NCBI GenBank assembly: GCA_041666915.1
Contig: JBAYFZ010000001.1
Location: 201,086 to 265,085 of the forward strand
Reading direction: 5' to 3'
Length of the DNA: 64,000 nt
DNA from: Minisyncoccota bacterium
GTDB lineage: Bacteria; Patescibacteriota; Minisyncoccia; Phycocordibacterales; PALSA-1337
Shown here in pieces: positions 42,998 through 52,064 of the stretch. Position numbers and translations under genes: made by a program. The notes beneath the pieces are model-generated. The model was given only the letters and a program-made list of their open reading frames with translations, had not been told where the DNA came from and did not search any database. Position 1 is the first letter of the stretch, and the number at the start of each line of letters is the position of its first letter.

Positions 42998-43972
42998 TTA
43001 AACCGAGAAATTTTTCAGTGAGTAAAGTTCTTCATTATCCTCTTTCTCAATCTCTTTTGCTGACCTATCATCCATAGGAATAACTGAATCCGTTGTTTCT
43101 GTCTTCGCAAGTTGACTAAATTTACCTGATTCTGATTTTATAAGTTTCTCCAATAGTCCACGTAGATCATCTGGACTAAAGAAATCAATCGTAACAGTAC
43201 CACCAGCCTTATTATTCTTTTCAATACGCACACGTGTACCCAAAGACTCGGTAAAATTCTTCTCCATTTCAATAATCTGTGGATCCAAATATTTTTCTTT
43301 GTTGCGAATCTTGTCTGTAGCAACTCTTCTAGACATAGATTCAGCTTCACGGACCGTGAGCTTATTTGCCATTATTTCTTTGAACAAAACTAGCTGTTCT
43401 TCTGGCCTATCAGCAAGCATGAGCAATGGACGAGTGTGACCTTCAGAAATCCTACCTTCTTCAAGAGCGGTGATCATCTCATCTGGCAATAACAAAATAC
43501 GCATTGAGTTGGAAACATATTCACGGCTCTTGCCCACTTTGTCTGCAATCTGAGCTTGCTTGAGTTTGAATTCTTTTGCCAAACGTTCAAAAGATCTAGC
43601 GCGGTCTACAGGATTAAGGTCTTCCCTTTGGAGATTTTCAATGATAGCCATCTCCAATTTTAGCTGAGGGTCTTCTTCACCACTTCGGATAAGTACTGGC
43701 ACCGAAGCCAATCCTGCCAACTTGGAGGCTCTCAAACGACGTTCCCCTGAAATAAGTTCATATTCTACGGTCATTCCGCCAGTTTCGTGGAAAACTTCCT
43801 TTCTGGTGACAACCAATGGTTGCAAAACACCGTACATGCGGATAGATTCTGATAAAGCTTTAAGAGCGACTTCGTCGAATTCGCGTCTTGGTTGATAAGG
43901 ATTGGGACTGATCTTCTCTACTTCAACCCAGAAGATCGCATCGCTAACATAAGGTGTTGCCATGTATGACAT
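42998..43972 (-). CDS. parB: ParB/Spo0J chromosome partitioning protein
   Basis: The ParB box is KISPNPYQPRREFD...LQPLVV. The GERRLRA motif and a C-terminal dimerisation domain are present. Confidence 0.85.
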   Translation of the reverse strand: MSYMATPYVSDAIFWVEVEKISPNPYQPRREFDEVALKALSESIRMYGVLQPLVVTRKEVFHETGGMTVEYELISGERRLRASKLAGLASVPVLIRSGEEDPQLKLEMAIIENLQREDLNPVDRARSFERLAKEFKLKQAQIADKVGKSREYVSNSMRILLLPDEMITALEEGRISEGHTRPLLMLADRPEEQLVLFKEIMANKLTVREAESMSRRVATDKIRNKEKYLDPQIIEMEKNFTESLGTRVRIEKNNKAGGTVTIDFFSPDDLRGLLEKLIKSESGKFSQLAKTETTDSVIPMDDRSAKEIEKEDNEELYSLKNFSV

Positions 43973-44031
43973 TGTAACACCTTTGATTTATTTCTAAAAT
44001 ACTATAAACTGGTTCATGGTGGTATTTATAT

Positions 44032-44113
44032 GCCGGAGTGGCGAAATTGGTCTACGCGCACGACTCAAAATCGTGTGGAGAAATCCATGTGGGTTCGAGT
44101 CCCACCTCCGGCA
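44032..44113 (+). tRNA. tRNA-Leu (anticodon CAA), type II with a long variable arm
   Basis: Hand-folded: acceptor GCCGGAG/CUCCGGC, anticodon stem CACGA/UCGUG with loop CUCAAAA, variable arm UGGAGAAAUCCAU, and T arm GUGGG-UUCGAGU-CCCAC. A36A37A38 is present. Confidence 0.8.
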
Positions 44114-44121
44114 CCGTAATT

Positions 44122-44775
44122 ATGCAGTATATCCATATCAAAAAATGGGTGCCTGATTTGGCATACGTTGTCGGTCTTTTGGTAACTGATGGTTGCCTTT
44201 CTTCTGATGGACGTCATGTAATCTTCACTTCAAAAGATATTGAGGCTGTAAACAATGTCCTCAAAATTCTTGGTGCCACAAATTCAGTTGGTAAGACGAT
44301 AAACGAGAGATCTGAAGCGTATCGTATTCAAATTGGAAGCATTGAACTTTATCGCTGGTTAGAAAGTATAGGATTAACACCTCACAAATCTCTAACTATA
44401 GAATCAATCAAAGTACCAGATGAATACTTCATAGATTTTCTAAGAGGACACCTAGATGGAGATGGTTCAATCACAACTTACTTGGATAAATATAATACAA
44501 AGAAAAATAAAAAATATGTATATCAAAGACTTTGGGTACGATTTATTTCAGGAAGTCAAAAACATATAATATGGTTACGTAAACAAATTACAAAGATTAT
44601 TGGTGTCAAAGATCGTATACATATAACAAAACCTAATAATATTGGTAACTCAATTTATGTGATAAAGTTTGGAAAGAAAGAATCAATAAAATTACTTAGT
44701 AAGATATACTATTCCAATACATTACCCTGTCTGACAAGAAAACGAACAATTTACAAGAAATTTAAAAATTCATGA
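44122..44775 (+). mobile_element. Free-standing double-motif LAGLIDADG homing endonuclease
   Basis: The two LAGLIDADG motifs are YVVGLLVTDGCLSSDG and FIDFLRGHLDGDGSI. The ORF-track start at 44038 would read through the tRNA, so the start is taken as ATG 44122. The stop overlaps the miaA start (ATGA). Confidence 0.7.
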
Positions 44776-45641
44776 AAACCAAACTGATTGTAATCCTAGG
44801 TCCTACAGCATCCGGCAAAAGTAACCTTGCTGTACAAATAGCCAAAAAAATTGGTGGCGAAGTTATTTCTGCTGATTCTAGACAAGTTTATAAAGGTTTA
44901 AATATTGGAACAGGTAAAATTACTAGTGTTGAAATGCAAGGAATTCCTCATCACCTTTTGGACGTTGCCGACCCAAAAGAAACTTTTACTGTAGCTGATT
45001 ACGTAAAATTGGCAGAAAAAGCCATCGCAGATATTACAAAGAGAAACAAAATTCCAATAATTTGTGGTGGAACTGGTTTTTATATTCAAGCTCTAGTTGA
45101 TGGCTTATCTATACCCGAAGTACCTCCAAATGAAGAATTAAGAAAGGGACTTTCAACAAAAACTATCTCTGAATTAAATAAAATCTTAGAGAGACTTGAC
45201 CCTGCAAGATTTGAAACTATTGATAAAGATAATCCTCGTAGACTTATCCGAGCTATAGAGATAGCTACAGCACTAGGTAGTGTTCCTCTTCTAGAAAAAA
45301 CATATAAATATGATACCAGATTCATAGGGATTGATATGCCGATGGATATATTGAAAGAAAGAATTCACAAAAGGTTACTTAGTCGTATCAAAAATGGAAT
45401 GATAGAAGAGATTCGCAATCTTCATGACAACGGGCTTTCGTGGGAAAGAATGGAGGATCTTGGTTTGGAATACAGATATGTTTCAAGACATCTCCAAGGA
45501 ATGATTACAGAAAAAGAAATGCTGGAACAACTGGAAATGGAAATTTGCCATTATGCCAAAAGACAAATGACGTGGTTTAAGAGAGATAAGAAGATTGAGT
45601 GGTACAAGAGTGGTGAAGAGGCGCTATTGGCTTTCAAGTAA
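44772..45641 (+). CDS. miaA: tRNA dimethylallyltransferase
   Basis: The P-loop is IVILGPTASGKSNLAV, followed by SADSRQVYKGLNIGTGK. Confidence 0.9.
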   Translation: MKTKLIVILGPTASGKSNLAVQIAKKIGGEVISADSRQVYKGLNIGTGKITSVEMQGIPHHLLDVADPKETFTVADYVKLAEKAIADITKRNKIPIICGGTGFYIQALVDGLSIPEVPPNEELRKGLSTKTISELNKILERLDPARFETIDKDNPRRLIRAIEIATALGSVPLLEKTYKYDTRFIGIDMPMDILKERIHKRLLSRIKNGMIEEIRNLHDNGLSWERMEDLGLEYRYVSRHLQGMITEKEMLEQLEMEICHYAKRQMTWFKRDKKIEWYKSGEEALLAFK

Positions 45642-45693
45642 ACAAAAAAGAGGAGCCGAAACTCCTCTTGTGATTCAAACGATCTAATAATTT

Positions 45694-46326
45694 TCAACCT
45701 TCTTCTGGTGTCTTTTTTGGGTCTTCTGTGTTTAGACAATAGATTACCCAGAATATCATACCCACCACCATAGCAATCATGTAGACGATAAACAATATTG
45801 GTATGTATGCAGTACCAAGAAACAATGCTGTGAAGACGCTCATTGTCAGATCTAGGACAATCACTGTTCCTAATGGTCCAATATTATTTGTAGACCATCC
45901 AGAATCTTCTTTTTCGGCAAAGTAATAACTGGTCCCAATAAAACCAAGAGTAAAAAACCAACCGGGAATAAGAAATATATCCCACAGACGACTCACGGCA
46001 AAAGGTAATTCAATATCCCACCAAATCAATTCCAAAATTGAAACTGATGGGGCACTGCCATTGATTTGAACGTACAAAACCCACCCCAAAGCGTAAACAA
46101 AAGCGAAGAAGATGATCAGGCAAGTCCTAAGACAAATCATATCGCCATAGTCATCTTTACATAACCATCGCACAATCTTCACCAATCTACCCTTAATCGA
46201 CTGCCATTTTCTTTTCAATTTTTCTCTCATAAGACTCTCCTCGTATTTTATTTGTTTTTCTTGAAAGTACGAATGCACTTTCTCTGCAGTCATATAACAC
46301 CTAAAAGAGGGTTTGGTCAAGACCAT
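45694..46326 (-). CDS. Hypothetical multi-pass membrane protein
   Basis: It has four predicted TM segments and no family motif. Confidence 0.4.
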   Translation of the reverse strand: MVLTKPSFRCYMTAEKVHSYFQEKQIKYEESLMREKLKRKWQSIKGRLVKIVRWLCKDDYGDMICLRTCLIIFFAFVYALGWVLYVQINGSAPSVSILELIWWDIELPFAVSRLWDIFLIPGWFFTLGFIGTSYYFAEKEDSGWSTNNIGPLGTVIVLDLTMSVFTALFLGTAYIPILFIVYMIAMVVGMIFWVIYCLNTEDPKKTPEEG

Positions 46327-46813: not shown

Positions 46814-46887
46814 TGGCGGGCCCACCAGGACTCGAACCTGGAACCTCGCTTTTGGAGAGCGATGCTTTACCATTAAACTATAGGCCC
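46814..46887 (-). tRNA. tRNA-Trp (anticodon CCA), CCA end encoded
   Basis: Hand-folded from the reverse complement: acceptor GGGCCUA/UGGGCCC, anticodon stem UCGCU/AGCGA with loop CUCCAAA, and T arm CCAGG-UUCGAGU-CCUGG. Confidence 0.75.
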
Positions 46888-46894
46888 CAACACC

Positions 46895-47548
46895 TTAAAT
46901 ATAGAGCCTTATAAACTTTTTTGCAAACGCCAAAATCACTCGAGCTAAATGTGAATCAAAATATGTTACTCTGACACAACCTTTATACCCTTTCTTAGAA
47001 AACAGATGATTACTTTTCTTCATATACGGATTGGTAAATTGCACCAATGATATACCAAGAGTGTCAGACCAAAACGAAAGTATCTCTTTTCTGTTGTGAT
47101 AATCATGTAAATGTACACAAATTCTTAATTTATCTCTATTAATGTCAAAGATATTGCCAAGCATTTTTATAAAAGCACGAACCAATTCTGGATCTGAGTT
47201 AGTAAAAGATATACCTCTGCCATCTTTTGTCCCTTCGCACCAATACATCATAGAAAGAGCGACCATTGAAGTAATTTTATCTTTTTGAACATTCTCAAAT
47301 AATTTATCCGCGATAATATCAGCTTTAATTAGACGCTCTAATTTTTTCTCATGAAGTTTAGCATGTCCTTTAGCCATGTTTATTTTGGTATTTAACTTTA
47401 CACGAGCATCTCCTACAGAACTCAAAATAACATCTTTCGTCCATAAAGATGCCGTACTTTTTGAGATACCAAAACGTTTAGAAATCTCACTCAAAGAATA
47501 ACCTTGGTTGCGTAAAGTTCGTGCATCATTTTTATGAATCGTCTTCAT
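46895..47548 (-). CDS. Hypothetical protein with an N-terminal resolvase-type HTH, inserted between rpmG and tRNA-Trp
   Basis: The HTH is GYSLSEISKRFGISKSTASLW. The remainder (YWCEGTKDGRG...) was not recognised and could be a degenerate homing-endonuclease-like domain. Confidence 0.35.
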   Translation of the reverse strand: MKTIHKNDARTLRNQGYSLSEISKRFGISKSTASLWTKDVILSSVGDARVKLNTKINMAKGHAKLHEKKLERLIKADIIADKLFENVQKDKITSMVALSMMYWCEGTKDGRGISFTNSDPELVRAFIKMLGNIFDINRDKLRICVHLHDYHNRKEILSFWSDTLGISLVQFTNPYMKKSNHLFSKKGYKGCVRVTYFDSHLARVILAFAKKFIRLYI

Positions 47549-51235: not shown

Positions 51236-51319
51236 GCGCAGGTGGCAGAGCGGTCAATTGCAATGGACTGTAAATCCATCGCCCTATGGGCTACGAAGGT
51301 TCAAATCCTTCCCTGCGCA
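51236..51319 (+). tRNA. tRNA-Tyr (anticodon GTA), type II
   Basis: Hand-folded: acceptor GCGCAGG/CCUGCGC, anticodon stem AUGGA/UCCAU with loop CUGUAAA, a long variable arm, and T arm GAAGG-UUCAAAU-CCUUC. Confidence 0.8.
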
Positions 51320-51324
51320 CTACG

Positions 51325-51350
51325 AAAAAACCGAGTTTTACTCGGTTTTT
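51325..51350 (+). terminator. Rho-independent terminator after tRNA-Tyr (AAAACCGAG-UUUUA-CUCGGUUUUU)
   Basis: Read directly. Confidence 0.65.
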
Positions 51351-51450
51351 GAGTGGGCGCAGAGCGACGTGCCTGAGTACGTCGCAGTAAAAAAATCCTT
51401 CCCTCAAAATTTTCTTTTGCTTCTTTTTGAAGTTGGTGTATCATTCCTAA

Positions 51451-51768
51451 ATGGAAATAATTTATTGGAATGAAAAAGTACAAGAATTTATAGACGGTCT
51501 CGATAAGATCACATCCTCCCGCGTAAAAAAGACGATAAATTCTCTGGAAAAATTCGGACATTTATTAGGAATGCCTGATTCTAAAAGCTTAGGTAAGGGA
51601 TTATTTGAACTTAGAACTCTCGGTAAAAATCAAATAAGAATTTTGTATATATTCCATGACAATAAGGTTTATATTATTCACGGTTTTATCAAAAAAGCTT
51701 GGAAAATAAGTATAAAAGACATTAGTTATGCTAGGAGAATTCAGAATGAGGTCGTTGGATTTGCATAA
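51451..51768 (+). CDS. Type II toxin, Gp49-like/HigB-like (RelE/ParE superfamily)
   Basis: The 105 aa product has GKGLFELRTLGKNQIRILYIFHDNKVYIIHGFIKKAWKISIKDISYA, matching the Gp49 (PF05973)-like pattern. Confidence 0.7.
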   Translation: MEIIYWNEKVQEFIDGLDKITSSRVKKTINSLEKFGHLLGMPDSKSLGKGLFELRTLGKNQIRILYIFHDNKVYIIHGFIKKAWKISIKDISYARRIQNEVVGFA

Positions 51769-51794
51769 TATACCGTATATGCTATATTAGTACC

Positions 51795-52064
51795 ATGATG
51801 AAAACGCACAAACAAGTCATGGAAGAATTTCTTAGGGATCCAGAAAATAAGAAAGCTTATGATAGTCTTGAAGTTGAATTCAAAATTCACGATGCACTTA
51901 TAGAAGCCCGAATCCAAAAGAAACTCACTCAAAAACAGTTAGCTTCAAAACTGGGGATTACCCAATCAGCTCTTGCACGTTTTGAATCTGGCAGAACAAA
52001 TCCCACTCTTTCTTTTCTCCAAAAAATTACTTCTGGATTGGGTTTGAAACTTACCATAATTTAG
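51795..52064 (+). CDS. XRE-family HTH antitoxin (HigA-like)
   Basis: The HTH is LTQKQLASKLGITQSALARFESGRTNPTLSFLQKI. It follows the toxin immediately. Confidence 0.7.
   Translation: MMKTHKQVMEEFLRDPENKKAYDSLEVEFKIHDALIEARIQKKLTQKQLASKLGITQSALARFESGRTNPTLSFLQKITSGLGLKLTII

Follow-up and report, generated by a model that had tools for sequence, protein, structure and literature searches.

A LAGLIDADG endonuclease gene held at the 3′ edge of tRNA-Leu(CAA) in candidate phyla radiation bacteria: a candidate intron-less homing system

Why should a gene for a double-motif LAGLIDADG endonuclease lie between a tRNA gene and miaA, with hardly any spare DNA on either side? The question is raised by a locus in a metagenome-assembled genome (MAG) of Candidatus Paceibacterota, a member of the candidate phyla radiation (CPR). 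The stretch analyzed, called the window below, comprises 64,000 nucleotides of contig JBAYFZ010000001.1 (assembly GCA_041666915.1, positions 201,086 to 265,085 of the forward strand), and coordinates are counted from its first letter. On the plus strand, an intact class II tRNA-Leu(CAA) with a long variable arm (44032–44115 by ARAGORN; 61.3 bits against Rfam RF00005 at 44032–44113), whose CCA end is only partly encoded (ACCg), is followed by the spacer GTAATT (44116–44121; 6 nt from the ARAGORN end, 8 nt from the discriminator A44113), and then by the endonuclease open reading frame (ORF) of 217 residues (44122–44775; ATG at 44122, stop TGA at 44773–44775). The downstream cistron is miaA (44772–45641, plus strand), encoding tRNA (adenosine(37)-N6)-dimethylallyltransferase (TIGR00174, E 1.8e-73, 247.3 bits against a cut-off of 148.65; PF01715, E 5e-69), the start codon of which (44772–44774) overlaps the endonuclease stop codon as ATGA (44772–44775; tcATGAaa). 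The initial annotation had described just this arrangement, and had taken the enzyme as free-standing and not intron-encoded in situ; both statements stand, the tRNA being uninterrupted and a search of the whole window with Rfam at the gathering threshold having returned four tRNAs only, with no intron. We favor, with moderate confidence, the reading that the gene encodes a homing endonuclease that is free-standing and has the 3′ edge of the tRNA-Leu(CAA) gene as its niche and probably also as its target; transcription reading through from the tRNA would provide for its expression.

That the ORF is a genuine gene is shown by its homologues, at least 900 in number, by the strong constraint under which it evolves, and by a confident structure model. 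These homologues (family 1) were collected by a word-indexed search, and most carry the NCBI label ‘hypothetical protein’; the best 120 are 183–294 residues long, share 50–75% identity with the query, and come from Patescibacteria wherever the organism is named. When 1.84 billion cluster representatives were searched with a profile, 325 family 1 clusters were obtained at E ≤ 1e-30. In six close homologue pairs, the ratio of nonsynonymous to synonymous substitution rates (dN/dS) of the endonuclease is 0.05–0.11, as compared with 0.02–0.07 for ParB and 0.11–0.14 for MiaA. The AlphaFold2 model (predicted local distance difference test score (pLDDT), 95.7; predicted template modeling score, 0.91) consists of two alpha-beta-beta-alpha-beta-beta-alpha halves. 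Pfam LAGLIDADG_3 matches residues 13–84 (E 4e-7; 30.6 bits, cut-off 22.5) and LAGLIDADG_1 matches residues 108–216 below its cut-off (E 1.8e-3; 19.6 bits, cut-off 23.1). The first LAGLIDADG motif (LAYVVGLLVTDG, residues 13–24; 44158–44193) contains Asp23 (D23; codon 44188–44190) at the C-terminus of helix 11–23, and the second (FLRGHLDGDGSI; 44437–44472), with the core FLRGHLDGDG (residues 106–115), contains Asp114 (D114; codon 44461–44463) directly after helix 100–113. Both residues, together with 25 further positions, are invariant in an alignment of 33 sequences (48–74% identity); the catalytic acids, on which the initial annotation had made its assignment depend, are thus retained.

The structural relatives of the model point to the same enzyme class. 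A Foldseek search of the PDB gave 115 matches at E ≤ 1e-3, and all of the 50 listed have the LAGLIDADG fold, mostly homing endonucleases, with bI3 maturase and WhiA in addition. The best solved match is I-Tsp061I (PDB entry ID, 2dch; E 7.5e-12; template modeling (TM) scores, 0.70/0.74), followed by intein endonuclease domains, I-DmoI (TM about 0.64), I-AniI, bI3 maturase, and WhiA; in a sequence-profile search of the PDB, 2dch was matched with an E of 2.4e-7, with both of its motif aspartates aligned with Asp23 and Asp114. The window enzyme shares with I-Tsp061I and I-DmoI the size of ~190–220 residues, two motifs per chain, and an acidic residue at the end of both motifs, whereas those two enzymes reside in archaeal rRNA introns and cut intron-less rDNA, and the window enzyme, only 16–18% identical to them, is free-standing, bacterial, and tRNA-adjoining, with a putative target. 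A double LAGLIDADG-like fold is also found in WhiA (DUF199), a transcription factor that has lost the catalytic acids and bears a C-terminal helix-turn-helix (HTH) domain. Although the WhiA structure 3hyi is a structural neighbor of our model (E 1.1e-7), the acidic residues of the window endonuclease are invariant, a Pfam scan of the protein found no HTH, and the chain ends after the second LAGLIDADG domain. Altogether, it is apparently a well-conserved, monomeric, and active LAGLIDADG enzyme.

The partner of the gene was then sought among its neighbors in other genomes. A family 1 relative is encoded in at least 573 GTDB species genomes (one genome scanned per species), mostly of Parcubacteria- and Microgenomates-type CPR, and also in MAGs labelled Omnitrophota, Anaerolineales, and Methylomirabilota. 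Among the 80 best GTDB loci, which constitute our survey of tRNA linkage, tRNA-Leu(CAA) adjoins the family 1 gene in 77; it directly precedes the gene, in the same orientation, in 73 and follows it in four. In the latter, which belong to Anaerolineales and Methylomirabilota and form one clade in the endonuclease tree, the tRNA begins 13–41 nt past the stop codon; the three loci lacking tRNA-Leu(CAA) comprise two contig ends and one with tRNA-Leu(GAG). In 54 of 68 loci, the tRNA and the first in-frame start codon are separated by 0–13 nt, and the median gap is 7 nt. With a single isoacceptor next to the endonuclease in 77 of the 80 other genomes, the adjacency is beyond chance.

Linkage to miaA is of a different kind. 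Homologues of 67%, 60%, and 58% identity retain the order parB(−)/tRNA-Leu(CAA)/endonuclease/miaA, and the 4-nt overlap with miaA recurs in the gene calls of loci L003 and L004. A homologue of 54% identity has unrelated neighbors, yet tRNA-Leu(CAA) ends 4 nt ahead of its ATG, and the downstream gene is not miaA at L007, at L030, and in most of the loci L009–L088, where tRNA-Leu(CAA) still adjoins. Because the downstream gene varies and the tRNA does not, miaA was ruled out as the functional partner. The initial annotation had noted A36-A37-A38 in this tRNA and had suggested that the endonuclease invaded a functionally coupled tRNA-modification locus. The anticodon loop indeed reads CTCAAAA (C32 T33 C34 A35 A36 A37 A38), and tRNA-Leu(CAA) would accordingly be expected to serve as a MiaA substrate; the suggestion of an invasion is retained in part, as the gene does appear inserted into a tRNA–miaA unit (see below), whereas miaA is incidental and the tRNA is the conserved partner.

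Individual loci depart from this layout in several ways. Three loci are exceptions to the tight junction: at L079, tRNA-Leu(CAA) is missing upstream of the family 1 gene, which overlaps a tRNA-Leu(GAG) on its downstream side, and at L039 and L071 tRNA-Leu(CAA) precedes the gene by 338 nt and 1.4 kb, respectively. At L029, L031, L041, L066, L083, and L074/L129, the stretch leading from the tRNA to the conserved core contains no in-frame ATG, GTG, or TTG, so that these copies either use a non-canonical start, start within the 3′ part of the tRNA, or are decayed; a GTG or ATG of the T-arm is in frame with the family 1 gene at L083 and L063. The record titles of L014–L020, L056, L058, L071, L081, L088, and others name Saccharibacteria, Gammaproteobacteria, Methanosarcinales, or Deltaproteobacteria despite a Paceibacterota-like parB/tRNA-Leu/endonuclease order. 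Such titles are probably automatic or mis-binned labels, and the range of family 1 outside CPR is provisional.

If the gene is mobile, sites lacking it should be recognizable. Metagenomes were scanned for the window-type tRNA (anticodon arm plus the T-arm and the 3′ half of the acceptor stem), giving 107 loci, 96 of which had enough downstream sequence. Of these 96 loci with a near-identical tRNA, two carry an intact family 1 gene (L097 and L167) and one a copy that is frameshifted and lacks a canonical start (L129, matching GTDB locus L074); approximately 33 show ParB and/or MiaA synteny like that of the relatives of the window. Empty parB(−)/tRNA-Leu(CAA)/miaA sites were found at L125, L135, L150, L104, L160, and L177, with miaA starting 0 nt from the tRNA at L125 and L135 (TTG), 12 nt from it at L150, and a few tens of nucleotides from it at L104 and L160. 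The comparison of related loci proposed in the initial annotation therefore has a definite outcome: the endonuclease is not universal, and presence and absence at a defined site are both observed, as compared across lineages. Because relatives carry parB, tRNA-Leu(CAA), and miaA with nothing between the latter two, the endonuclease gene looks like an insertion into a pre-existing tRNA–miaA unit. The tRNAs of L150 (empty) and L167 (filled) differ by 1 nt, and therefore an immunity determinant cannot lie within the tRNA body; the distinction between a cleavable and an immune site would instead span the 3′ boundary of the tRNA, where the insertion would split it. In these endonuclease-free relatives, the tRNA with A36-A37-A38 and miaA form a compact unit by themselves. 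Other relatives (L094, L099, L121, and L131) have the tRNA in inverted orientation, still with parB on one side and miaA on the other.

The same site is also occupied by a second family. Family 2 comprises at least 663 double-motif LAGLIDADG proteins of ~190 residues with the motifs YIIGVAIGDGNLS and LRGLIETDGSVY, in which Asp25 and Asp127 (D25 and D127) are invariant in the alignment. The two families are homologous and far apart, judging from their profile comparison (hhalign probability, 95%; identity, 27%). At L123/L188 the first in-frame start of family 2 lies 0 nt past the end of tRNA-Leu(CAA), and at L102 the conserved N-terminal region is in frame from the tRNA end, with the first canonical start ~55 nt further on; three distant members (among L202–L205) start 1–3 nt past tRNA-Leu(CAA), with parA/parB upstream. 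The members sampled come from a Portnoybacteria MAG, the complete Giovannonibacteria genome CP066687.1, and one other source. Several family 2 proteins are named ‘LAGLIDADG family homing endonuclease’ at NCBI and some ‘WhiA’ at JGI, and faint LAGLIDADG_WhiA matches were obtained for some. At L091, the first ~40 codons of family 2 are left (profile E 2.3e-18), followed by two stop codons and then by miaA; this stump is a deletion remnant and, together with the frameshift of L129/L074, shows that degenerate copies are present. In the MiaA tree, L012 (family 1), L091 (family 2 stump), and L150 (empty) are neighbors, and L104 (empty) stands beside L123 (family 2). Filled, remnant, and empty sites are thus intermixed in a narrow clade, a pattern that suggests turnover at a single site and not orthologous divergence.

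How the gene is expressed is suggested by its surroundings. The 6-nt spacer is too short for a promoter or a Shine-Dalgarno sequence, and the sole promoter-like site on the plus strand preceding the tRNA–endonuclease–miaA unit, TTGTAA-17-TAAAAT (43972–44000; 9 of 12 matches in a consensus scan), lies ~31 nt 5′ of the tRNA; it counts as weak evidence, and promoter-like sites in the region are not enriched (12, as compared with 7.5 ± 3.1 in shuffled sequences). Since neither a promoter nor a ribosome-binding site would fit into the spacer and the only promoter-like site is 5′ of the tRNA, the three genes are assumed to be co-transcribed. A GC-rich hairpin (45648–45669) between miaA and the convergent ORF 45694–46326 (minus strand) is tentatively taken as the end of the transcription unit; its terminator-like match is on the minus strand, and its T-run on the plus strand is poor. 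The endonuclease gene is AT-richer than average without being an outlier (GC, 0.313 versus 0.376 ± 0.033).

From what was observed, namely the anatomy, the fold, the conserved catalytic residues, the specific linkage to the tRNA, the purifying selection, and sites that are empty or decayed, we infer a mechanism in which co-transcription, leaderless translation, cleavage at the tRNA edge, and homing would follow one another. The promoter-less ORF would be transcribed together with the tRNA, and RNase P and 3′ processing would free the tRNA, leaving an mRNA with its AUG 0–13 nt from the 5′ end. With the AUG so near the 5′ end after tRNA processing, translation would therefore be leaderless or Shine-Dalgarno-independent, and miaA would be translated by coupling through the ATGA overlap. 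The arrangement resembles mitochondrial ‘tRNA punctuation’ and tRNA–mRNA co-transcripts, in which an ORF likewise starts a few nucleotides past the tRNA 3′ end, an analogy drawn from anatomy alone. LAGLIDADG enzymes cleave site-specifically within 14–40 bp of DNA, leaving 4-nt 3′ overhangs. In the window enzyme, Asp23 and Asp114 would cut an asymmetric site of ~20 bp, which most likely spans the 3′ end of tRNA-Leu(CAA) and its trailer in genomes free of the gene. The break would be repaired from a filled allele through homology in tRNA/parB and downstream, whereby the ORF would be copied in, and the inserted ORF would split the site and render the carrier immune. At depth, the lineage would be passed on mostly vertically with its tRNA, with repeated loss, decay, and replacement by family 2. 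tRNA-Leu(CAA) reads UUG only, and UUG is also read by tRNA-Leu(UAA); because of this second reader, damage to the tRNA-Leu(CAA) gene may, as a matter of speculation, be tolerated and make the gene a safe target.

Several observations weigh against the homing endonuclease reading. Within the parB-adjacent clade (20 loci), the identity of the endonuclease correlates with that of the adjacent ParB (Spearman coefficient, 0.66; 0.45 for ParB versus MiaA as a control), an earlier coefficient of 0.10 being an artefact of non-adjacent, probably non-orthologous ParB matches, and the endonuclease tree groups by phylum, placing Omnitrophota together and Anaerolineales with Methylomirabilota. Because the gene tracks ParB and its tree follows the phyla, deep inheritance seems to be mainly vertical, and long persistence under strong purifying selection also fits a gene useful to the host. 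The acceptor stems of tRNA-Leu(CAA) are diverse among carriers (GCCGGAG, GGGCGTG, GGGGATG, and GCCCGGG), and with tRNA sequences differing so widely no single conserved target can be named; enzyme and site would therefore have to co-evolve. The correlation between tRNA and endonuclease identity (Spearman coefficient, 0.05) is uninformative, the tRNA being short. A filled/empty polymorphism within one population was not found, three of three contigs with identical MiaA being filled. The high intactness of the copies in L009–L088 is partly a matter of ascertainment, as the GTDB search patterns were the two motifs in intact form. Finally, the family 1 profile found no relatives among the viral contigs of IMG/VR, and a phage vector for the endonuclease was dropped for this reason.

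Comparison of close pairs gives a different picture. The synonymous divergence (dS) of the endonuclease is 2–13 times below that of the flanking genes in four of five pairs, namely L016/L017 (0.35, with flanks at 1.16 and 1.65), L029/L031 (0.025, with flanks at 0.13 and 0.32), L028/L030 (0.67, with flanks at 2.1), and L065/L078 (0.62, with flanks at 1.44), values above ~1 being saturated and the contrasts rough. Nucleotide identity in close pairs is highest across the tRNA and the endonuclease, and in L028/L030 synteny breaks exactly at the 3′ end of the endonuclease gene. Given this saturation at the higher values, low dS and the identity peak are consistent with, and no proof of, occasional cassette exchange or gene conversion.

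The main alternative to a homing endonuclease is that the protein is a domesticated resident with a LAGLIDADG function retained by the host at this locus, as a regulator, a processing helper, or a maturase-like factor binding the tRNA gene or the co-transcript; families 1 and 2 would then be diverged versions of one ancient CPR gene, lost in some lineages. The dN/dS as low as that of ParB, the hundreds of full-length copies in CPR and in MAGs labelled Omnitrophota and Chloroflexota, the co-divergence with adjacent ParB and clustering by phylum, and the linkage to one isoacceptor on either side of the tRNA would all be expected of such a gene, and WhiA and bI3 maturase, both among the structural neighbors, are precedents for co-option. 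Unlike in co-opted proteins of the WhiA type, however, the catalytic aspartates and surrounding active-site positions are invariant, and the gene is dispensable, being absent from most of the close relatives that share the tRNA and the parB/miaA synteny. The intermixing of two families of 27% identity in a narrow clade, along with a 40-codon stump and a frameshifted copy, and the dS lying below that of the flanks likewise speak against domestication, which we hold to be rather unlikely on balance.

Slightly less probable still is a variant in which families 1 and 2 constitute an ancient nuclease lineage that hosts have kept and that was already attached to one tRNA gene when CPR, Omnitrophota, and Chloroflexota split, with a message made by tRNA 3′ processing and an activity used at the locus itself. 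Its role would be the control or repair of the tRNA-Leu(CAA)/parB region, or action on the tRNA–mRNA co-transcript, and it would, if true, represent a new resident LAGLIDADG function that keeps its catalytic center.

It is also conceivable, and in our estimate quite improbable, that the gene exploits the tRNA for expression only, the tRNA supplying constitutive transcription and a processed 5′ end while the nuclease acts elsewhere, on foreign DNA or on an rRNA-intron insertion site. The tight junction without promoter or Shine-Dalgarno sequence would suit such a hitch-hiker; miaA takes the place of first cistron after the tRNA in empty sites, the same genomes have a further, unrelated gene family close against tRNA-Trp, and LAGLIDADG-encoding insertions are known in CPR rRNA genes (PMC11270868). 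For mere expression, however, any of ~45 tRNA genes would do, yet the gene is found with tRNA-Leu(CAA) in 77 of 80 loci and with tRNA-Leu(GAG) in another, and family 2 sits independently on the same tRNA. Moreover, in the four non-CPR loci with the gene upstream of the tRNA read-through is impossible, and a homing endonuclease gains nothing by cutting far from its own gene. Least of all do we expect a remnant of a tRNA or rRNA group I intron that has lost its ribozyme, an origin offered by the initial annotation to which nothing points: although the nearest relatives of solved structure are encoded in introns or inteins, the Rfam search found no intron in the window, the tRNA is intact at every locus with the ORF outside it, and the spacer is just 0–13 nt.

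Among described systems, the best functional analogue of a homing endonuclease at a tRNA edge is SegB of phage T4, a free-standing endonuclease encoded among the T4 tRNA genes, whose 27-bp site includes the T-psi-C stem-loop of a tRNA and which was shown experimentally to drive the inheritance of itself and the neighboring tRNA genes by intronless homing (PMC2330249). SegB is a GIY-YIG enzyme of a phage, whereas the window enzyme is of the LAGLIDADG type, chromosomal (in CPR and other bacteria), tied to one isoacceptor by a junction of a few nucleotides, and predicted from its sequence. In CPR themselves, rRNA genes contain LAGLIDADG genes within insertion sequences and group I introns (PMC11270868). 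The window gene shares with these the host group, the enzyme superfamily, and the sporadic occurrence at highly conserved RNA-gene sites, but the rRNA insertions sit inside the rRNA genes, while the window endonuclease has no intron and leaves the RNA gene untouched. The text of that paper (PMC11270868) does not mention tRNA or free-standing copies, and in the literature searched (full text, including a review of bacterial group I introns) we found no account of a link between LAGLIDADG genes and tRNA-Leu(CAA), and none of free-standing copies in CPR.

The enzyme class and free-standing homing are thus already known, and what appears to be new is the tRNA-edge niche, its breadth, and its occupancy by two families. 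These comprise at least 900 proteins for family 1 and at least 663 for family 2, located a few nucleotides away from one tRNA gene across CPR and some other phyla. Free-standing homing endonucleases have been described mainly in phages and organelles, and bacterial LAGLIDADG enzymes mainly in introns and inteins. If the tRNA edge is the target, the locus would represent a chromosomal, intron-less bacterial homing system lasting over phylum-scale time, with a bearing on the persistence of selfish genes and on the idea of a free-standing ancestor for intron endonucleases. It would also provide hundreds of natural, co-varying pairs of enzyme and target, of use in understanding and engineering meganuclease specificity.

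Gene prediction at these junctions requires care. In the window tRNA, none of the three forward frames meets a stop codon across the T-arm and the 3′ half of the acceptor stem, and the frame of the endonuclease ORF relative to the tRNA varies among loci. An ORF running through the tRNA (GTG, 44038–44775) and the N-terminal extensions of P0026, P0042, and P0058 were considered and rejected as trivial read-through. Gene callers often prolong ORFs into the tRNA (in the window and in P0026, P0042, P0058, P0370, and P0373), and the resulting peptides, such as AHDSKSCGE, are translated tRNA. These extensions are a systematic mis-annotation that masks the tRNA–ORF junction, an annotation problem compounded by the fact that most copies are named as hypothetical.

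Two other tRNA genes of the window are adjoined by small genes. A gene of 217 codons (46895–47548, minus strand) ends 7 nt before tRNA-Trp(CCA) (46814–46887, minus strand), and its product has an N-terminal HTH and an alpha/beta domain with the invariant segments YWCEGxK, FTNSDP, and HLHDYH. The family comprises ~98 proteins, from Patescibacteria wherever the organism is named; the gene ends 13 nt from the tRNA at L013 and 6–16 nt from it at L196/L197 and L198/L199, and overlaps it by 10 nt at L200/L201, and rpmG lies just upstream in the window, at L196/L197, and at L198/L199. It was considered as a second LAGLIDADG gene and not confirmed as such, its likeness to a single LAGLIDADG domain being weak (Pfam E 0.023; hhalign probability, 18%; BLASTP E 4e-4 over 25 residues), and its product had no Foldseek match in the PDB, despite a pLDDT of 94. 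In the region 51236–52064, tRNA-Tyr(GTA) is followed by ORFs of 105 residues (51451–51768) and 89 residues (51795–52064), which are not LAGLIDADG genes and, by eye, resemble a RelE/HigB-like toxin and an HTH antitoxin.

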